Part shown: positions 41,491-52,842 of the stretch, one piece after another
Layout of the letters: the number at the start of each line of letters is the position of its first letter
Position numbering within the stretch: position 1 is the first letter of the stretch
Origin: Escherichia coli
GTDB taxonomy: Bacteria > Pseudomonadota > Gammaproteobacteria > Enterobacterales > Enterobacteriaceae
Reading direction: 5' to 3' (one strand)
Assembly (NCBI RefSeq): GCF_022846255.1
Contig: NZ_AP025682.1
DNA: 64,000 nucleotides
Position numbers and translations under genes: made by a program
The notes under the pieces: generated by a model
What the model saw: only the letters and a program-made list of their open reading frames with translations
The model's database searches: none
What the model was told of the DNA's origin: nothing

Positions 41491-41506
41491 AGCAAGGGGA
41501 GTGCCA
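41491..41506 (-). promoter_or_regulatory. Sigma-54 promoter of atoDAEB (-24/-12)
   Basis: Minus strand reads TGGCAC-TCCCC-TTGCT, matching TGGCAC-N5-TTGCW, ~45 bp upstream of the atoD ATG. Confidence 0.75.
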
Positions 41507-41588
41507 GAATGAGATTATTGGGGGGTGTTATTTAACTAATTGAATAAAAAAGGATAAATTAGATGGGGGTTTATAAGGAGAATGAGCG

Positions 41589-41629
41589 GCTATGCAGAAA
41601 ATTGCGCACTGTGCAAATTTCTGCATAGC
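41589..41629. promoter_or_regulatory. AtoC upstream activating sequence (inverted 20-bp repeats)
   Basis: gctatgcagaaaattgcgca-c-tgtgcaaatttctgcatagc, near-perfect palindrome ~100 bp upstream of the sigma-54 element. Confidence 0.75.
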
Positions 41630-41640
41630 AAGTTTTGGCG

Positions 41641-41819
41641 TTATACATCCGCCGGATCGATACCGTATTCCTGGAGTTTATACATCAATGCACGGCGACT
41701 GATGCCCAGCATTAATGCAGTGCGGGTTCGGTTTCCTTCTTGTTGTTCCAGCACTTCCATAATGATGCGTTTTTCGACGCGTTTAATTTCCTCTTTTAAA
41801 TTACGCTCACCGACAGGGG
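41641..41819 (-). pseudogene. atoC: atoC 3' fragment (C-terminal HTH domain) separated from the rest of the gene by IS4
   Basis: Hand-translated in frame with the 5' part across the TSD: ...PVGERNLKEEIKRVEKRIIMEVLEQQEGNRTRTALMLGISRRALMYKLQEYGIDPADV*. Confidence 0.85.
41808..41819. repeat. IS4 target-site duplication, left copy (CACCGACAGGGG)
   Basis: Identical 12-mer directly flanks the other IS4 end at 43246-43257. Confidence 0.9.
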
Positions 41820-43245
41820 TAATGCCAGTCAGTTAAGCAACTGACTGGCTCTTTTTCGGGGCTGTGGGGTATTTCCAGGGCCTCTCCTTTACCACTCTCG
41901 GGAAGGCCCTTTCCCTTCTTGTCGGTAATTTCACAAGTTGTCCCATACTTGCAAGATCGCGCATCAGCTCCGGTATACGTCCCGGTGAAGCGCCCTGCAA
42001 TGTCATCAGCATTCTCATCACCATTCCACATGATTCTGAGAAACTCAGTTGATTCGGCCAGTAACCTTTCAGATGTTCCGCCATTTTAATCATCTGATAT
42101 CTCACCAGATTATAAGCCAGTAAGACACCCCACAGCTCTTGCTCCACAAGCTCCGGTTTTTTACTTCTCAGCGTCAGCCTGCTCAGTTGCATCGTCTGTT
42201 TTATCTCCCTGTATCCCAGTTCGATTTCCCAGCGATGACTGTACAGATCCGCCATTTCTCCTCCGGGGAAGCGCATGGCGTCCGTCATCGACGTCAGCAG
42301 ATGGCAGACTTTTCCTTTGCGCGTCACGGTCAGCAGGCGGGCTGTCACTTCATTTCCCAGTCCCGGCCACTTTTTTCGTGCCTGCGGGCTGGTTTTCAGC
42401 TTCACCAGATGATCGCCTTTACCCAGTTTTCTGATCTCTTCATATTGCGCTCCCTTTCTGAGAGGTATCATCCAGTGGCGGTGTTCTCCCGCCAGGCTCC
42501 AGGCATTTAACAGTCCCAGTGAGTAATAACCTTTATCCATTAACGTCAGAGTGTTATCGCCGGTTTGTTCTATAAGTTGCTCAGCAAGCTCATTTTCGCT
42601 GTTCTTCATCGTGCCGAAGGCTGCAGCCGTCAGCAGATGGCTGGTCAGTTCCATCTGGCAGACCATTTTGACCTGCGGGTAGAGCGCCGGGTTCCCGGCA
42701 TGTGTCTGGCGGGGGAAGGCTGCATCGTTCTCTGGTGTATCCGGTGTGCGCCAGAACACACCATCGATGGCCAGCAGGGTCAGGCCGCACCAGTGCGGAT
42801 GCGGCGTGGCGTTATGCCAGAGCTGCGCTGTTTTCGTGAACACGCGGCGGACAGCCTCACTTCCCAGGCGCTGGCGGGCCTGAATAACGGCACTGGGGGC
42901 AACGAAGGGGCGATTGCCCGGCAGCATGATGTCCAGGCGATTCACAATCTGGTGAAGAGGTTCTTTACGCTCAAGCGCCATGCCAACAATACACCAGACC
43001 ATCATTTCGAGGGGAAGACGGCGCTTGCGTAGCGTTACAGTACCTGATTCGGCAAGGCAACGAGAGATGAGTTCGGGGTCGAGGTAATCCCCCAGAGAAG
43101 TCAGTGGGTTACGCAGAGAATCGTAACGGGATACCAGATCAAGAGCCTGTCCAATGTGCATAAAAAAATCCGGAAACAAGTGAGCGTTTCCGGATTCTTA
43201 CACAGCCACTGGATCGGTCAACTGATCCTTAACTGATCGGCATTA
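41820..43245 (-). mobile_element. IS4 insertion sequence, complete (1426 bp)
   Basis: Terminal inverted repeats TAATGCCAGTCAGTTAAG / TAATGCCGATCAGTTAAG (16/18 match); 1426 bp between them; single 442-aa IS4-family transposase; flanked by 12-bp direct repeat. Confidence 0.9.
41833..43161 (-). CDS. insG: IS4 transposase InsG, 442 aa
   Basis: Starts [16 protein letters not shown]; the ORF-track 448-aa version begins 6 codons upstream. Confidence 0.9.
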
Positions 43246-44464
43246 CACCGACAGGGGCTGTTTTTGCCTCACCAGCATTACAGACTGGCTGACGAATCTG
43301 CGGCGGAAGATCCTCAGAGAAAATGATCGGGCCTGAGTTCATCACGACGGCGCGTTCAATGACGTTGGAAAGCTCTCGAATATTACCCGGCCATGACCAG
43401 GCGGTAAGCAGCGACATTGCCATCGGATCGATGTCGATAATATCGCGCTGATTCTCACTACTGAATTTTTGCAAAAAGTGATTAGCTAACAGGGAAATAT
43501 CTTCCCGGCGATCGCGCAGAGGCGGCAGTATTAAATGAATAACGTTAAGGCGATAAAAGAGATCTTCACGGAAGGTGCCTTCTTTCACCATTGCCTGCAA
43601 GTCGCGGTTGGTGGCAGCAATGATGCGGATATCAACTTTTATGGTCTGATGACCGCCAATCCGTTCAAATTCCCGTTCCTGCAGAATGCGTAGTAATTTG
43701 GCTTGCAGTACCAGCGGCATTTCGCCAATTTCGTCGAGGAGCAGAGTACCTTCGTTGGCACGTTCAAATAATCCCTGACGTAAGGTTTGTGCACCAGTAA
43801 ATGCGCCTTTTTCATGACCAAACAGTTCACTTTCGAGCAACGATTCCGGCAGCGCCGCGCAGTTGACTTTAATGAACGGCCCCTTTGCCCTCCGCGAATT
43901 GTAGTGAATCGCTCTGGCAATCAACTCTTTCCCGGTGCCGCTTTCACCGCTAATCAAGACGCTGGCCTGAGAAAGGGCAATTTTGGCGGTGTCTTTGCAG
44001 ATGTCCATCATCGCCGGGCTGTTGGTGAGAATGTGCCCCCATTGCCAGCTGGTGCTCAGTGCCTGGTGCAGATGACGGATCTCTTTTTTCATTGACTGGA
44101 GTTGTAAAGCGCGCTGAACGATTAAATTCAACTCATCGAGATCAAACGGTTTGATAACATAGTCGAAGGCTCCGCAGCGTAGTGCTTCGACGGCGGTTTC
44201 CACTTCAGCATAGGCCGTCATCAGAATAACGGGTGTCCGGGTCTCATGGCTGCGCATCTCCTTGAGTGCCTTGATGCCGTCCATCTCTGGCATGCGGATA
44301 TCCATCAACACCACGTCAGGGTGAATATCGGCAAACAGGTGTAATGCTGTGCGCCCGTTGTTCGCACAATGTGTTTCGAATCCTTGTAGTGCAAAAGCGG
44401 TGCTCAGCATACGGCGAACATTATCTTCATCATCCACAATAAGGATGCGATTAATAGCAGTCAT
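43229..44464 (-). pseudogene. atoC: atoC 5' part: receiver plus sigma-54 AAA+ domains, truncated by IS4 (406 native codons + VMPIS from the IS end)
   Basis: ORF of 411 aa ends 17 nt inside the IS4 terminal repeat; GESGTGKE Walker A and GAFTGA motif present; HTH absent. Confidence 0.85.
43246..43257. repeat. IS4 target-site duplication, right copy (CACCGACAGGGG)
   Basis: Identical to 41808-41819. Confidence 0.9.
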
Positions 44465-46287
44465 ACAGTCTGATTTCCCTGCGGGTTGATCGGTAAAATA
44501 AGCGTGAAGGTTGCGCCGTAGCCCGGCAAACTGGCGACGCGAATATCACCCTGATGGGCATTAATGATGCGTTGACTTAACGCCAGACCAAGCCCGGTTC
44601 CTGAGGCTTTGGTAGTGAAAAAGGGATCGAAGATCTTTTTTTGCAGCGAGAGATCAATGCCACTGCCGTTGTCCTCTATCGAAATGGCCTGTTGTGAGTC
44701 GCTATACTGCCAGGTTCGAATGCGAATTTTCCCTCGTGCACTGATAGCCTGGACGGCATTGATCAGGATATTCAGTAGTACCTGTTTGAGCAGTTCACGA
44801 TCGGCGTTAATCGGGCTTAATTCATTATCCAGTTCGCTTATGAAGTCGACCCGCGCTTGTACGCCGGCGGTTTGTACCAGTACCAGAGTTTCTTCAACCA
44901 ATGCATTGAGGCTGACTTGTTGCCATTGACTGTGGCGTGGACGTGAAAATTCGAGCAATTGCTGAATAACTTTGTTAATTGAATCGATTTCTTTGAGTAC
45001 TACGGACAGATATTCCTGATGTATTGGGTCACGGGTTTGTTGGCGCAAGATCTGTACATAACCACGAATAGCTGTTAGCGGATTACGTAATTCATGCGCC
45101 ACGCCAGCCATCAGCTCACCCAGTGTGGCGAGGCGTTCTGCTTGCGCCATGCGGCGCTGGGTTTCTTTGCGGGCAGTTAAATCAGAGAAAATCACCAAAG
45201 CACCTATCATTTCACCGTGCGTGTTATGAATACGACTGGTCGTGACACTGAGTTCAATGGTGCGGTCACGGCCTGGAAAACTGATCTCCAGTGCTACATG
45301 TTCGGTGCCATGTTCCAGCGTATCCAGTACTGGACTGTAGAACTGAGTATTGTCGAACAACATGGAGTAAGGCTGCCCTACCAGTTCATGACGTTGATAG
45401 CCAGTGATGACTTCTGCTGCTGGGTTCATGGTGGTTACATCACCCTGGCGGTCAATGGCAATGACGCCATCGGCAGCGTTTTCAATAATCAGATCGTTAA
45501 GTGTTCGCGTTTCACGCAGTGCCTGGGCGAGGTTGTTAACACTCTGACTGATTTGCCCCATTTCACCGGGCAATTGTGGTAATCGAGTGGGAATATTTTG
45601 TGCCAGAGTCGAGAGGCCATCGGTGATGATATCTATATTGGCGCTCAGGCGACGGGAGAAAAGGACAATCAACAGCAGGCTTATCAGCAAACCGGCGGTG
45701 AGCACAATGATAATCCTCACATCCATTTTCCAGGCCTGGCGGCGAATATCTTCGGTTAATTCATTGGCCCAGATATAGCCGAGGATTTCACCATTACGCT
45801 CAATGGGAATCATTGAATTCAAAATATCGCCGCGCACCTGCCTGCCTGAATAAACCAAAGGGGTATTTGTACGCATGACTTCGCGACCAGGGTGATCTGC
45901 GGCAATGGTAACGCCCACATTATTCTGATATAGCGCTGAAGGCGCGTAGGTGATTATCGCATCCAGCGTTTTGTTGTAATAACCAGCGCCGATGCCAGGG
46001 AAGGCGTGAGTGATATTTTCGGTAATGGGGGCAAGTTCTGCATTTAATGCGCGGATATGCTCCTCACGCGGTAAGTCGATGTAGAGATCGTAGCGATTGC
46101 CTAGCGCCTGATTAAGCAGGTTGACCACGGCAGAAAGTTTTTTCTCTTTTTCAGATAAGACTGCTGAACGTCCTTCCGTTTCTACGATATAACCAATAGT
46201 AAGCGTTGGGACAATGACCATCAGGATTGCCATCAGGATCATTTGATTGCGTAAGCGGCGTGGATAAATCCACTTCATATAATGCAT
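44461..46287 (-). CDS. atoS: Sensor histidine kinase AtoS, 608 aa
   Basis: Starts [15 protein letters not shown]; ATGA overlap with atoC start. Confidence 0.9.
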
Positions 46288-46453
46288 GCTGAAATCCACT
46301 AGTCTTGTCCGGTATATGACGATTATCAGAGGTTAAGGTGATGATTTCTCGGCGGTGTATCATATTCCAGAGAAGAGAGAACATTGCGGTAACACGCTTT
46401 TACCGCTACCTTAACCACACTCCATCGGTCACCTGAGGCGGAGCTTCGCCCCT

Positions 46454-49303
46454 TTGAAATACCTTGCTTCTTTTCGTACAACCCTGAAAGCCTCGCGCTA
46501 CATGTTCAGAGCATTGGCGTTAGTGCTCTGGCTGTTGATTGCTTTTTCATCCGTTTTTTACATCGTTAATGCGTTACATCAGCGAGAATCGGAAATTCGT
46601 CAGGAATTTAATCTGAGTTCCGATCAGGCTCAGCGCTTTATTCAACGCACCTCTGATGTGATGAAAGAGCTGAAGTACATAGCTGAAAATCGCTTATCGG
46701 CAGAAAACGGTGTGCTTTCCCCGCGTGGACGAGAAACGCAGACGGATGTGCCTGCGTTTGAACCGCTGTTTGCTGACTCTGATTGTTCCGCAATGAGTAA
46801 CACCTGGCGAGGTTCTCTGGAGTCATTGGCGTGGTTTATGCGCTACTGGCGCGATAATTTTTCTGCGGCTTACGATCTAAACCGGGTATTTTTAATCGGC
46901 AGCGATAACCTCTGCATGGCTAATTTCGGTCTGCGTGATATGCCAGTGGAACGCGATACCGCGTTAAAAGCTTTGCATGAACGCATTAATAAATATCGAA
47001 ATGCACCACAAGATGATAGTGGCAGTAACCTCTACTGGATCAGCGAAGGTCCGCGCCCTGGCGTCGGGTATTTTTACGCCTTGACGCCAGTTTATCTGGC
47101 GAACCGGTTGCAGGCGCTTTTGGGTGTCGAGCAAACCATCCGGATGGAGAACTTTTTCTTACCTGGTACGTTGCCGATGGGGGTTACCATTCTTGATGAA
47201 AATGGTCATACCCTGATTTCGCTTACCGGACCAGAAAGCAAAATTAAGGGCGATCCTCGCTGGATGCAGGAACGCTCCTGGTTTGGCTATACGGAAGGGT
47301 TCCGGGAGCTGGTGCTGAAGAAAAATCTGCCACCCTCATCGCTAAGCATCGTGTATTCGGTGCCGGTTGATAAGGTGCTGGAACGCATTCGCATGTTGAT
47401 CCTTAACGCAATTTTGCTGAATGTGCTTGCCGGAGCTGCATTGTTTACTCTCGCGCGGATGTACGAGCGGCGTATTTTCATTCCGGCGGAAAGCGACGCC
47501 TTGCGACTGGAAGAACATGAGCAGTTTAATCGCAAGATTGTCGCCTCCGCGCCAGTGGGTATCTGCATTTTGCGTACCGCTGATGGCGTCAATATTTTAA
47601 GTAACGAACTGGCGCATACCTATCTCAATATGCTTACGCATGAGGATCGCCAACGGCTGACACAAATTATCTGTGGGCAGCAGGTCAATTTTGTTGATGT
47701 CCTGACCAGCAACAATACCAATCTGCAAATCAGCTTCGTCCATTCGCGCTATCGTAATGAAAACGTGGCCATTTGTGTGCTTGTGGATGTTTCTTCGCGC
47801 GTGAAGATGGAAGAGTCGTTGCAGGAGATGGCACAAGCAGCGGAACAGGCGAGTCAGTCAAAATCGATGTTCCTTGCCACCGTCAGTCATGAGCTGCGAA
47901 CGCCGCTGTATGGCATTATCGGTAACCTGGATCTGTTGCAAACCAAAGAGTTACCGAAAGGCGTCGATCGTCTGGTGACGGCAATGAACAACTCTTCCAG
48001 CCTGTTGTTGAAAATTATCAGCGATATTCTCGATTTCTCGAAGATTGAATCGGAACAGTTGAAGATCGAACCGCGTGAGTTTTCACCGCGTGAAGTGATG
48101 AACCACATCACCGCCAACTATTTACCGCTGGTGGTACGCAAGCAGTTAGGCTTGTACTGCTTTATTGAACCGGATGTGCCAGTGGCCTTAAATGGCGACC
48201 CGATGCGTTTACAGCAGGTCATCTCCAACCTGTTGAGTAACGCCATAAAATTCACCGATACCGGCTGTATAGTTTTGCATGTTCGCGCTGATGGCGATTA
48301 TCTCTCTATCCGTGTTCGCGATACCGGCGTGGGGATTCCGGCGAAAGAAGTCGTGCGCTTGTTTGATCCCTTCTTCCAGGTCGGAACGGGCGTACAGCGA
48401 AACTTCCAGGGGACCGGTCTGGGTCTGGCGATTTGTGAAAAACTGATCAGCATGATGGACGGCGATATCTCGGTAGATTCAGAACCGGGAATGGGCAGCC
48501 AGTTTACCGTGCGTATTCCGTTGTACGGCGCTCAGTACCCGCAGAAAAAAGGCGTGGAAGGGTTGAGTGGTAAACGCTGCTGGCTGGCGGTCCGCAATGC
48601 GTCGCTCTGTCAGTTCCTGGAAACCAGTTTGCAGCGCAGCGGCATCGTCGTTACAACATACGAAGGGCAGGAACCGACTCCCGAAGATGTGTTAATCACT
48701 GACGAGGTAGTGAGCAAAAAATGGCAGGGTAGAGCGGTAGTGACCTTCTGTCGTCGCCATATTGGTATTCCGCTGGAGAAAGCGCCAGGGGAGTGGGTAC
48801 ACAGTGTGGCTGCCCCGCATGAGCTACCGGCATTGTTGGCGCGTATTTATTTGATCGAGATGGAGAGCGATGATCCTGCTAACGCTCTGCCGTCGACGGA
48901 CAAAGCGGTCAGCGATAACGACGATATGATGATTCTGGTCGTGGATGATCATCCGATTAACCGGCGTCTTCTGGCAGATCAGTTGGGATCGTTGGGCTAT
49001 CAATGTAAAACCGCGAATGATGGCGTCGATGCGCTTAATGTACTTAGCAAGAATCATATTGATATCGTGCTTAGCGACGTCAACATGCCAAATATGGATG
49101 GTTACCGCTTGACGCAACGCATTCGTCAGTTGGGACTGACGTTGCCGGTTATCGGAGTAACTGCTAATGCGTTGGCTGAAGAGAAGCAGCGGTGTCTGGA
49201 GTCCGGTATGGACAGCTGCCTGTCGAAGCCGGTAACGCTGGATGTGATAAAACAGACGCTAACGGTATATGCCGAGAGGGTCAGGAAATCGCGGGATTCG
49301 TAG
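46454..49303 (+). CDS. rcsC: Hybrid sensor kinase RcsC, 949 aa (TTG start) or 933 aa from ATG 46502
   Basis: HisKA/HATPase plus C-terminal receiver; the ORF-track start is TTG. Confidence 0.9.
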   Translation: MKYLASFRTTLKASRYMFRALALVLWLLIAFSSVFYIVNALHQRESEIRQEFNLSSDQAQRFIQRTSDVMKELKYIAENRLSAENGVLSPRGRETQTDVPAFEPLFADSDCSAMSNTWRGSLESLAWFMRYWRDNFSAAYDLNRVFLIGSDNLCMANFGLRDMPVERDTALKALHERINKYRNAPQDDSGSNLYWISEGPRPGVGYFYALTPVYLANRLQALLGVEQTIRMENFFLPGTLPMGVTILDENGHTLISLTGPESKIKGDPRWMQERSWFGYTEGFRELVLKKNLPPSSLSIVYSVPVDKVLERIRMLILNAILLNVLAGAALFTLARMYERRIFIPAESDALRLEEHEQFNRKIVASAPVGICILRTADGVNILSNELAHTYLNMLTHEDRQRLTQIICGQQVNFVDVLTSNNTNLQISFVHSRYRNENVAICVLVDVSSRVKMEESLQEMAQAAEQASQSKSMFLATVSHELRTPLYGIIGNLDLLQTKELPKGVDRLVTAMNNSSSLLLKIISDILDFSKIESEQLKIEPREFSPREVMNHITANYLPLVVRKQLGLYCFIEPDVPVALNGDPMRLQQVISNLLSNAIKFTDTGCIVLHVRADGDYLSIRVRDTGVGIPAKEVVRLFDPFFQVGTGVQRNFQGTGLGLAICEKLISMMDGDISVDSEPGMGSQFTVRIPLYGAQYPQKKGVEGLSGKRCWLAVRNASLCQFLETSLQRSGIVVTTYEGQEPTPEDVLITDEVVSKKWQGRAVVTFCRRHIGIPLEKAPGEWVHSVAAPHELPALLARIYLIEMESDDPANALPSTDKAVSDNDDMMILVVDDHPINRRLLADQLGSLGYQCKTANDGVDALNVLSKNHIDIVLSDVNMPNMDGYRLTQRIRQLGLTLPVIGVTANALAEEKQRCLESGMDSCLSKPVTLDVIKQTLTVYAERVRKSRDS

Positions 49304-49502: not shown

Positions 49503-50153
49503 TTAGTCTTTATCTGCCGGACTTAACGTCACTGAAGAGAGATAATTCAGCAGAGCAATATCGTTCTCGACACCCAGCTTCATCATCGCAGATTTCTTCT
49601 GGCTACTGATGGTTTTGATACTGCGGTTCAGCTTTTTAGCGATCTCGGTCACCAGGAAACCTTCCGCAAACAGGCGTAGAACTTCACTCTCTTTTGGCGA
49701 GAGACGCTTGTCACCGTAACCACCAGCACTGATTTTTTCCAACAGGCGAGAAACGCTTTCCGGGGTAAATTTCTTCCCTTTCTGCAGCGCGGCGAGAGCT
49801 TTCGGCAGATCGGTCGGTGCACCTTGTTTCAGCACGATCCCTTCGATATCCAGATCCAATACCGCACTAAGAATCGCCGGGTTGTTGTTCATGGTCAGAA
49901 CAATGATCGACAGGCTTGGGAAATGGCGCTTGATGTACTTGATTAAGGTAATGCCATCGCCGTACTTATCGCCAGGCATGGAGAGATCGGTAATCAACAC
50001 ATGCGCATCCAGTTTCGGCAGGTTGTTGATCAGTGCTGTAGAGTCTTCAAATTCGCCGACAACATTCACCCACTCAATTTGCTCAAGTGATTTGCGAATA
50101 CCGAACAAGACTATCGGATGGTCATCGGCAATAATTACGTTCATATTGTTCAT
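49503..50153 (-). CDS. rcsB: Response regulator RcsB (LuxR/FixJ family), 216 aa
   Basis: Starts MNNMNVIIADDHPIVLFGIRKSL; ORF-track start 50198 is an extension. Confidence 0.9.
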   Translation of the reverse strand: MNNMNVIIADDHPIVLFGIRKSLEQIEWVNVVGEFEDSTALINNLPKLDAHVLITDLSMPGDKYGDGITLIKYIKRHFPSLSIIVLTMNNNPAILSAVLDLDIEGIVLKQGAPTDLPKALAALQKGKKFTPESVSRLLEKISAGGYGDKRLSPKESEVLRLFAEGFLVTEIAKKLNRSIKTISSQKKSAMMKLGVENDIALLNYLSSVTLSPADKD

Positions 50154-50169
50154 GTAATAGGCTACCTTG

Positions 50170-52842
50170 CTACAGCAAGCTCTTGACATAACTGTCAATG
50201 TCGCTGATGTATTTTTCTATTCCTGGAACATCCTTCTCACGAATCAGATGTTCCAGCGTTTCACATAACTGCTTGCCGGGTACCAGATTTAGCATGGCAA
50301 ATACGCCTTTAAGACGATGAGCCGTTTGGGCTAACGCAGCAAAGTCACTGGTTGCTGCTTCAGTATACAGCCTCTTAACATCATCCGGTACTGTGTCTAC
50401 AAAGAGCGCATAATAGCCGCTGGCATGGAGTTGCGCATTTTCATCTCCGCCCAGAGGCGATTCTGTCACCTCTTCCTGCGCCAGTTGCACTTCAATTAAT
50501 TGTAAGACCGCTTCCTGCATAGCGTTGCTCATATTGAAATTGACGCACAATTGACCAGGCCCAATTTCCCGTACGCCAGACTCATCATCGCTTAAAAGCA
50601 AGCCAGAGGCAGTAAGATTAGACGGATTATCCGTTAAAAAGATATCATAATCTTGACTAATTAATCTTTCATCGGGTGTGATACAGGTTGCACCCCAATT
50701 TTCTAACTGGCGAGTGACAATATTCCGAATTTCTGCCGAAGTAACATCCACCATTACGCAGACATCATCCAGTAATCGCTCTTCTTCCTCTTCAACTTCC
50801 GGGTCAGCTGCGAGCATTTTGATATGCACAGAGTAGCGTGTACCGAGCCCATCCCGCGTTTTGATGTTTAAATGACCGCCCAGTTTACGCGCCAGTTGAT
50901 CGCTCAGCCAGAATGCCAGCGGGTCCGCCTTGCCATAGCGATCGTTTTGGGTCTGGTTGATAAACGGGAAGTGCAAATTATCCATTTCATGAATACTTAC
51001 GCCTTCTCCCGTGTCCAGAATGCGGAACGTCAGGCGGTCTTCGGAGGACTCATCCTGATCAACCTCAAGGGTGATTTTTCCCAATTGCGTTGAGGTCACG
51101 GCATATTGCATCAGTAGTAGCAAAATACGTCGTAAGGCATCGCGATCGCCGCGGCGCATATCGTGTGCTTTCAGATGATTGTTAATCAGCAGTTGCAGAC
51201 CTTTACGCTTGATGGCAGGCAACACTGAAGGCACAACTTCATCAATTAAATCCTGCACGGAGAACAGCTCCGTCTCACTTTTCCAGCTATCGTCCGCAAG
51301 CATGTTCGCTAACTGTATTTCATCGACCAGCCGCACCAGCACATCTGCCTGATTCGCCAGTTGTTTGCCTTCCGGGGCGTTGAGTTTAGCCGCGCTCTCC
51401 GCCAGGGACTGTGCGGGTTCTTTCAGCGCATCGCCAATGTTTTTCATAAAGGTCATCCGCCCCTGCTGGTTTTTCTCATACAGACGCTGCGCCTGCTTGA
51501 GTTTCTTGTTTACCAGCACTTCGCGATCCTGATCGCGAATAATGAAAATTTGTGTGCGCGGCGCAACCTGGCTGCGGAACATGCGGATCTCATACAGCTC
51601 GTTATTGATCGTCGCCTGAATAATCCCCTGATGCTGTTCCGCCATGGTGGTGATGTTTTGCAGATTCAAATGCGGCAGCAAATGATCGGCAATTTTGTTA
51701 CTTATGACTGTGCGGTTCGATTCCTGATCGTGAACCAGCAGGCCGAGCGGCAGCAGTGAGACTATCTCTTCATTAATTGCCCGTAAAATGCGCAATTCGT
51801 TATTGACCGCCGTGCTGGGGACGCTTTCTGTACTGCGGCTGGAGAAATGGCGGAATGTGGTATAGCCAAATAACGCCAGCGCCAGCAAACCGATGTTCAG
51901 CAGCAGTGGCAGCAGAATGTTTTGCAACGTATCCAGCAGTAAGGTGCCGTAAGGAACCTGCCAGACCAGGCGCATATCGGTAGAGTTGAGTGCCGAGGAG
52001 ATTTCAATCTTCGTACTGTTAAAGTGGATACTGACGCTATCCGTCCCTTCTTTCTCATTTTCATTGTTTCCCGTTGCCGTCGCGTCTGGCTCAAGGCGGA
52101 AACTGTCCAGCGGCATACCCGGTGGGATCAAATCATTAATCGGCAGATCAAAAGCCACGACCGTTGCCAGATGTCCCGGCTGGTTGAACGTGGTACGCAA
52201 GGTAAAGTAATGACCGTTCTGCCAGGCCAGGCGGCGCATGTTAGAAAAACTTTCGCGTTCATCGAGGGCGTTGGCCTGTTGCAACATCTCTGCACGACGT
52301 GAATCAACAATGTCGCTGACGGTCGATTCTTTAAATCCGGAGGTGAGATCTTTGAGGGGCAGGGTTGAGATCAGCACCAGACTGTTATCCTGACCATTCA
52401 GGTAATACATCGACCACGGTACATTTTCTGCGCCCCACAATGTGTCCAGATAGGTGGACATCCGTTGAGTCATCTCAAGCGTTGAGTTGTCGTGAGAGCC
52501 AAAGATTAACGCTTCCGTTTTGCGGCGTGGTTTCTCCAGATAGTAGACATCCTGTTTCAGGCGCGTCTCTTGTAAACCTTCGCCGGAGGAGGGGGAGGTT
52601 GTCGCGGCAATGTTGTCGTAGATCTGCCAGGTCACGTAACGCCAGGTATCGACGCGCTTTTGGATAGCGTGGGTAATGTCGACAATCTGGTAACTTTTAT
52701 CTTTCAGCCAGGCGTTAACGGCGCTTTGTACCATTACACCCATCGTCACCAGTAACACAATGATCAACAGTAAAAAGAAGCGGGTAATGCTCCCCGGTAG
52801 GAGTGAAAAGCGGGTCGTGGCCGTTGTCTCTTTCTGACGCAT
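50170..52842 (-). CDS. rcsD: Phosphotransfer intermediate RcsD (YojN), 890 aa
   Basis: Protein recognised; C-terminal HPt domain. Confidence 0.9.
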   Translation of the reverse strand: MRQKETTATTRFSLLPGSITRFFLLLIIVLLVTMGVMVQSAVNAWLKDKSYQIVDITHAIQKRVDTWRYVTWQIYDNIAATTSPSSGEGLQETRLKQDVYYLEKPRRKTEALIFGSHDNSTLEMTQRMSTYLDTLWGAENVPWSMYYLNGQDNSLVLISTLPLKDLTSGFKESTVSDIVDSRRAEMLQQANALDERESFSNMRRLAWQNGHYFTLRTTFNQPGHLATVVAFDLPINDLIPPGMPLDSFRLEPDATATGNNENEKEGTDSVSIHFNSTKIEISSALNSTDMRLVWQVPYGTLLLDTLQNILLPLLLNIGLLALALFGYTTFRHFSSRSTESVPSTAVNNELRILRAINEEIVSLLPLGLLVHDQESNRTVISNKIADHLLPHLNLQNITTMAEQHQGIIQATINNELYEIRMFRSQVAPRTQIFIIRDQDREVLVNKKLKQAQRLYEKNQQGRMTFMKNIGDALKEPAQSLAESAAKLNAPEGKQLANQADVLVRLVDEIQLANMLADDSWKSETELFSVQDLIDEVVPSVLPAIKRKGLQLLINNHLKAHDMRRGDRDALRRILLLLMQYAVTSTQLGKITLEVDQDESSEDRLTFRILDTGEGVSIHEMDNLHFPFINQTQNDRYGKADPLAFWLSDQLARKLGGHLNIKTRDGLGTRYSVHIKMLAADPEVEEEEERLLDDVCVMVDVTSAEIRNIVTRQLENWGATCITPDERLISQDYDIFLTDNPSNLTASGLLLSDDESGVREIGPGQLCVNFNMSNAMQEAVLQLIEVQLAQEEVTESPLGGDENAQLHASGYYALFVDTVPDDVKRLYTEAATSDFAALAQTAHRLKGVFAMLNLVPGKQLCETLEHLIREKDVPGIEKYISDIDSYVKSLL

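Follow-up and report, generated by a model that had tools for sequence, protein, structure and literature searches.

The translation start of RcsC in Escherichia coli K-12 has a documented annotation history. The 2006 record U00096.2 contained an rcsC model of 2802 nt (933 aa) with an ATG start, and it was this record with which Nakahigashi et al. (2016) compared tetracycline-inhibited ribosome profiling (TetRP) data. Table S2 of that study (row 32) lists a new rcsC initiation site at -48 nt with the codon TTG. The TetRP depths were 117.1, 39.4, and 44.1 at the TTG, versus 0, 0, and 3.2 at the 2006 ATG (average ratio 112), and the table contains no second initiation candidate for rcsC (PMC4909307). 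The 2014 record U00096.3 gives rcsC as 2317027-2319876, 2850 nt (949 aa), with its start exactly at the TetRP site; the entry 'New_2014_diff' is 0, meaning that the 2014 record had already been corrected and that TetRP only confirmed it (PMC4909307). N-terminal proteomics has been added recently. In Table S1 of TRAINSPOTTER, row 477 contains MKYLASFR (residues 1-8 of P0DMC5) as an N-terminal peptide. Its site belongs to the category dbTIS, has the codon TTG, is supported by 'Ribo-RET (BL21)' and REPARATION, and has two Shine-Dalgarno (SD) cores at a best spacing of 11, while rcsC (b2218) is absent from Table S2, which covers multi-start genes such as rcsB (Van Damme, 2026; PMC13245402). Together, the published TetRP and N-terminomics data show one dominant rcsC start. 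Cryo-EM structures describe TM1 and TM2 and a long helix alpha1, which comprises residues 11-81 in the E. coli protein and 2-82 in the Klebsiella protein, and in the Klebsiella structure F7 is among the residues of the dimer interface. A literature search yielded nothing specific on the rcsC TTG start or on a 933-residue RcsC, and the annotation history given here was taken from the TetRP supplement.

Here we describe the start region of the envelope-stress sensor gene rcsC in a 64,000-nucleotide stretch of E. coli DNA (the window). The preliminary description of this DNA had regarded the start as ambiguous between a TTG and an ATG 16 codons further downstream, and had proposed N-terminal proteomics and initiation-site mapping as checks. 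Both point to the same codon: MKYLASFR has been detected and the entry for its TTG site includes Ribo-RET support, and TetRP mapping, with 117/39/44 at the TTG but 0/0/3.2 at the ATG, singles out the TTG. In practice, the choice of the rcsC start is settled.

The rcsC gene and its two candidate start codons

Of 5426 complete E. coli genomes, 5422 contain a match to 46250-46750 of the window, many of them with 100% identity, and the feature annotated there is rcsC, with the divergent atoS gene upstream. One of the records with 100% identity in this region is that of strain SK1144, in which the RefSeq rcsC CDS starts at the position equivalent to 46454 and comprises 2850 nt (WP_000876055.1, 949 aa). 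RefSeq/PGAP places the TTG start identically in a strain without the ato operon, where the upstream gene is yfaP. The translation matches the NCBIfam RcsC equivalog NF008099 with 1841.5 bits (cutoff 920), and residues 1-948 align to positions 1-948 of the 949 profile positions. The curated family model therefore takes in the 16-residue extension, because the alignment begins at residue 1. The earlier naming of the gene as rcsC is thus borne out by both the profile match and the RefSeq annotation. rcsB and rcsD are adjacent and convergent to rcsC, which is the expected genomic context, and by orthology the product would act as kinase and phosphatase toward RcsD and RcsB. K-12 RcsC (b2218, UniProt P0DMC5, 949 aa) has the same TTG start, length, and neighbours. 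In the window, the 60 nt around the start agree fully with the K-12 context given in TRAINSPOTTER Table S1 (PMC13245402), and the few substitutions that distinguish the two genes lie elsewhere and leave the start site unaffected, e.g., residue 97 is T in the window and A in K-12. The features of the region are collected in Table 1.

Table 1. Features of the rcsC start region and its surroundings (window coordinates).
Feature	Coordinates	Strand	Basis and remarks
rcsC CDS	46454..49303	+	949 codons plus stop; ORF list and translation, NF008099 match, identical RefSeq limits
TTG initiation codon of rcsC	46454..46456	+	TetRP peak, N-terminal peptide, cross-species codon 1, entropy 0.07/0/0 bits
Codon 17 ATG, internal Met, start of the obsolete 933-aa model	46502..46504	+	Leu in most species, no SD, TetRP 0/0/3.2
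In-frame TAA closing the rcsC frame upstream	46412..46414	+	Frame scan
SD-like GAGGCGGAG upstream of the TTG	46435..46443	+	Anti-SD duplex -7.6 kcal/mol; GGAG ends 10 nt before the TTG
Codons 2-16 (KYLASFRTTLKASRY), N-terminal segment, translated and cytoplasmic, where helix alpha1 starts	46457..46501	+	Coding signature, orthologues, cryo-EM
First transmembrane segment, about residues 20-41 (approximate limits)	46511..46576	+	Kyte-Doolittle; cryo-EM TM1/TM2
ORF matching SK1144 rcsB	49503..50198	-	Convergent to rcsC, downstream
ORF matching SK1144 rcsD	50170..52842	-	Convergent to rcsC, downstream

The longest rcsC frame on the plus strand opens at the TTG and encodes a protein that begins (L/M)KYLASFRTTLKASRYMFRALALVLWLL...; in this frame, ATG first occurs at codon 17, which would give a protein beginning MFRAL.... 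Both had been placed and described exactly in the preliminary description. Between the upstream TAA and the TTG the E. coli window contains no in-frame ATG, GTG, or TTG. Methionine accounts for 2.8% of the rcsC codons, and at this frequency about 37% of starts would be expected to have an ATG among the next 16 codons, so that the combination of a TTG and an ATG 16 codons further on is not statistically remarkable.

The two codons differ in their ribosome-binding signals. It had been noted earlier that neither has a strong SD; this holds for the ATG, for which the anti-SD duplex of -0.1 kcal/mol amounts to no SD in E. coli, but not for the TTG, as the duplex of GAGGCGGAG is within the top ~1% of the positions scored inside rcsC. 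TTG is an inefficient start codon, and a spacing of 10 nt after the GGAG is longer than optimal. A search for RNA structures gave a small predicted GGCG/CGCC hairpin over the SD and another hairpin after the ATG at 46506-46531. However, the folds of 46415-46545, 46425-46475, and 46480-46540 were not above shuffled sequence (z-scores of 0.23, 0.69, and -0.70, respectively). The two hairpins are therefore not evidence of regulation, and a start-occluding RNA structure was rejected because the local folds are no more stable than shuffles. An Rfam scan of 45900-46900 (E<=1) returned no match, and a sigma-70 consensus scan of 46200-46600 revealed no promoter-like site.

The 16 additional residues lengthen the cytoplasmic N-terminus ahead of TM1, as had been proposed. 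Kyte-Doolittle windows of 19 residues that begin at residues 16-24 exceed 1.6, another hydrophobic segment is present at about residues 308-338, and residues 1-19 (MKYLASFRTTLKASRYMFR) contain five K/R and no D/E. Hydropathy thus gives the arrangement of RcsC, two transmembrane segments around a periplasmic domain and a short basic cytoplasmic N-terminus, and the basic residues in front of TM1 fit an N-in topology. This arrangement is consistent with the one described by cryo-EM. The cryo-EM data show that the segment is structured, which is a statement about recombinant proteins and not about the start that is used natively.

Conservation of the N-terminal codons in Enterobacterales

For the cross-species comparison, one genome per species was scanned with a degenerate DNA pattern for K2-Y-L-x-S-x-x-x-T-L-(K/R)-x-S-R-Y-x-F-R-x-L, in which codons 1 and 17 were left free. 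The scan covered at least 120 Enterobacterales loci, one per species, in five families: Enterobacteriaceae (Escherichia, Salmonella, Citrobacter, Klebsiella, Enterobacter, Kluyvera, Cedecea, Buttiauxella, and others), Erwiniaceae (Erwinia, Pantoea, Tatumella, Mixta), Yersiniaceae (Yersinia, Serratia, Rahnella, Rouxiella), Pectobacteriaceae (Pectobacterium, Brenneria, Samsonia), and Hafniaceae (Hafnia, Edwardsiella); no Morganellaceae were among the matches listed. Because the search pattern fixes many residues in codons 2-21, residue conservation there is in part by construction; bias is absent only from codons 1, 5, 7, 8, 9, 13, 17, and 20 and from third positions left free.

Codon 17 encoded leucine in 115 of the 120 matches listed and was ATG in only five, namely in two Escherichia representatives, two Superficieibacter, and Buttiauxella agrestis, while the other two Buttiauxella were without it. 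In most of the listed species the next in-frame ATG is codon 24, which is inside TM1, or codon 70, and elsewhere it is codon 88, 155, or another; with a start at such later ATGs the membrane anchor would be lost. One substitution, T to A or T to G, is enough to turn a TTG into a stronger start codon, yet codon 1 was TTG in 119 of the 120 listed species and GTG in the remaining one (Pantoea sp. 1.19). In 90 of them the frame contains no in-frame ATG, GTG, or TTG between the TTG and the preceding stop, and in several the stop is only two codons upstream of the TTG.

Column entropies were calculated from the 117 loci with enough flanking sequence. The 45 nt upstream of the TTG have a mean of 1.78 bits without periodicity, whereas the TTG itself has 0.07, 0, and 0 bits. 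The pattern-free codons of the extension (5, 7, 8, 9, 13, 17, and 20) have 0.49 bits at positions 1 and 2 and 1.29 bits at position 3, compared to 0.61 and 1.31 bits for codons 22-45, the coding status of which is unquestioned. These values show that the extension is under normal coding constraint, indistinguishable from that of codons 22-45, and that the boundary of conservation is sharp at the TTG, with a collapse directly upstream. The second codon is almost always AAA across the listed species, with a third-position entropy of 0.12 bits. A signal independent of the pattern came from similarity hits to the whole 349-residue sensor region, which are about 50% identical overall, include Erwinia and Pantoea, and keep MKYL(A/V)SF(R/H)TTL(K/R)(I/V)SRYLFR at the N-terminus. 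The protein-database search gave mostly fragments and served only for reading N-termini.

The SD score before the TTG has a cross-species mean of -3.9 versus a background of -2.1 (Mann-Whitney p ~1e-16, for species that are not independent), i.e., a weak SD-like signal is kept. The mean before codon 17 is -0.01 and thus weaker than the in-gene background of -2.08.

Alternative readings of the start region

All these lines of evidence lead us to conclude with near certainty that rcsC starts at the TTG at 46454 and that the ATG at 46502 is an ordinary internal codon for Met17. The TTG would be decoded as fMet, giving the 949-residue hybrid sensor kinase RcsC, and residues 1-19 would form a conserved, positively charged cytoplasmic lead-in with a helix that continues into TM1. 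The change from Leu to Met at codon 17 probably took place in the Escherichia lineage and, as separate events, in Superficieibacter and in Buttiauxella agrestis.

The alternative that fares best is dual initiation in Escherichia, with the TTG as the main start of the 949-aa protein and the ATG at codon 17 as the start of a low-level 933-aa proteoform, in which helix alpha1 would be missing its cytoplasmic part. Dual starts occur commonly in E. coli, no start codon is stronger than ATG, and Met17 is nearly fixed in the species, the 91 nt of 46430-46520 being 100% identical in 5374 of 5422 complete genomes. A minor Met17 product is conceivable because the ATG is not entirely silent in TetRP: in one of three replicates it has a low depth of 3.2, compared to 44.1 at the TTG (PMC4909307). 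N-terminomics is silent on it, as the Arg-terminated peptide of a Met17 start would be MFR, which is too short for mass spectrometry; MKYLASFR is the sole rcsC N-terminal peptide reported. Nevertheless, the ATG accounts for about 1.6% of the summed TetRP depth, which bounds a minor second start roughly at this level, and neither the TetRP candidates (PMC4909307) nor the multi-start genes of TRAINSPOTTER (PMC13245402) include a second rcsC start. The predicted local fold, which is not significant versus shuffles, partly pairs the ATG and has its hairpin directly after it. The hallmarks of a dual start would be initiation-complex footprints at both codons, a ribosome-binding signal upstream of the internal ATG, and evolutionary preservation of this ATG. 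What was found is a TetRP footprint at the TTG only, no SD before codon 17 (-0.1 kcal/mol), and ATG in 5 of the 120 listed species. We therefore regard dual initiation as quite improbable. Any such isoform could not be a conserved Rcs feature, because 115 of the 120 listed species are without the ATG.

The two remaining readings have a vanishingly small probability. The first takes the ATG at 46502 as the sole real start of a 933-aa protein, as in the 2006 K-12 annotation, with the 48 nt upstream as 5' UTR. It has in its favor that this is the first ATG of the frame and that the older annotation started there, but it is refuted by the TetRP peak at the TTG instead of the ATG (PMC4909307), by the detection of MKYLASFR (PMC13245402), by the prevalence of leucine at codon 17 (115 of the 120 listed species) with the next ATG often inside or beyond TM1, by codons 2-16 evolving as coding sequence while the region upstream of the TTG does not, and by the lack of an SD before the ATG both in E. 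coli and across species. The second, a near-cognate start further upstream at CTG 46433 or ATC 46424 in the frame that is open from 46415, would yield a protein of more than 949 aa and is just as effectively refuted, since the detected peptide begins with Met at the TTG position (PMC13245402), TetRP calls the TTG (PMC4909307), the upstream region is unconserved (1.78 bits, no periodicity), several listed species have a stop two codons before the TTG, and the SD-like element would fall inside the extension.

Implications and comparison with known systems

The TTG start of rcsC is already known from the current annotation and from experimental mapping, and for this reason the finding as such is ordinary. 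The choice of the start has nevertheless practical consequences. The difference of 16 codons shifts the residue numbering between the 933-aa and the 949-aa models, and it matters when deletions, tags, and expression constructs are designed. The long dimer-interface helix seen by cryo-EM would lose a conserved segment if translation began at Met17. In genome scans, the decision between the longest TTG frame and the first ATG can be quickly settled by a cross-species comparison of codons.

The conservation of a weak start codon throughout the order is a small, testable hint of dosage control in the Rcs system. The weak TTG, the near-invariant AAA as second codon, and the modest SD are probably kept by selection for a low, tuned synthesis of RcsC. 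It is tempting to speculate, although we put this at somewhat below even chances, that the order-wide combination of TTG, AAA, and weak SD acts as a translational set-point, kept by selection, by which RcsC synthesis is capped relative to RcsD and IgaA. If so, a conversion of TTG to ATG would disturb the balance of kinase and phosphatase activities in the Rcs phosphorelay. As a lesser variant of this speculation, the Escherichia-specific Met17 may support a trace 933-aa isoform.

Two kinds of described cases can be compared with rcsC. ArcB, with its internal product ArcB-C, is like RcsC a hybrid histidine kinase with an in-frame internal start-like codon, and for the internal start of arcB a Ribo-RET peak, an SD-like sequence, cross-species conservation, and a product in western blots have been reported (Meydan et al., 2019 preprint); rcsC is not mentioned in the text of that preprint. 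In contrast to arcB, codon 17 of rcsC is without an initiation peak, an SD-like sequence, and cross-species conservation. Other parallels are genes such as ybeZ, yliA, and ftsH (TetRP Tables S2 and S3), for which the first-ATG model was likewise replaced by an upstream TTG or GTG (PMC4909307). While rcsC differs from these TetRP re-annotations in that it had been corrected already in the 2014 record, it shares with the re-annotated E. coli genes that both the initiation-complex footprint and comparative evidence support an upstream near-cognate start (PMC4909307).

Start codon of rcsC

Among the matches listed, codon 1 of rcsC, the gene of the envelope-stress sensor, is TTG in 119 of 120 species and GTG in the remaining one (window positions 46454-46459 together with L004-L123, Enterobacterales loci from one genome per species, collected with a pattern that left codons 1 and 17 free). 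Codon 2 is nearly always AAA in L004-L123, with a third-position entropy of 0.12 bits among the matches listed, and the species comparison revealed, again among the matches listed, essentially no conservation of the sequence 5' of the TTG. Because TTG and AAA are near-constant while the upstream sequence is unconserved, the alignment suggests that the weak start codon of rcsC is kept by purifying selection.

A terminator-like scan found a hairpin that starts 2 nt past the internal ATG at codon 17, within the part of rcsC coding for the first transmembrane segment, but its stability is no greater than that of shuffled sequence (z = -0.70). In the E. coli laboratory strain ET12567, ISVsa5 (IS4-like) splits rcsC 126 nt past the TTG.

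Features of the rcsC and ato regions
Feature	Location	Strand	Remark
Hairpin TCAGAGCATTGGCGTTAGTGCTCTGG	46506-46531	+	11 pairs; terminator-like scan
AtoC ORF	43229..44464	-	matches profile positions 1-406 of 461 only
IS4-family transposase ORF, 448 aa	41833..43179	-	adjoins AtoC ORF
Split rcsC, locus L003 (E. coli ET12567)	NZ_CP045457.1 2705-5329		RefSeq: two partial pseudogene pieces

The ato genes upstream of rcsC

Of 5,422 E. coli genomes, about 1,540 show homology to the window only from about 46375 onward, 79 nt 5' of the rcsC TTG, and in the one such genome that was inspected yfaP, not atoS, lies upstream of rcsC. Therefore, a junction of presence versus absence of the ato operon lies just 5' of the rcsC 5' region. 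The longest atoS frame has 612 aa from a GTG at 46299 (- strand), and RefSeq annotates 608 aa from about 46287 (- strand); this start ambiguity (46287-46299, -) is of the same kind as in rcsC. The atoC gene of the window appears to be interrupted (41833-44464, -), and a search of 5,426 complete E. coli genomes found no genome with at least 80% of 41500-44600 at a single site.

Candidate internal starts in rcsD and rcsB

The N-terminomics study TRAINSPOTTER (Table S1, PMC13245402) lists candidate internal near-cognate starts, with Ribo-seq support given for neither, in two further Rcs genes of K-12, which in the window lie downstream of rcsC: an AAG at residue 149 of rcsB (row 476), and a CTG at residue 552 of rcsD (row 474), which would yield a C-terminal product of 339 aa.
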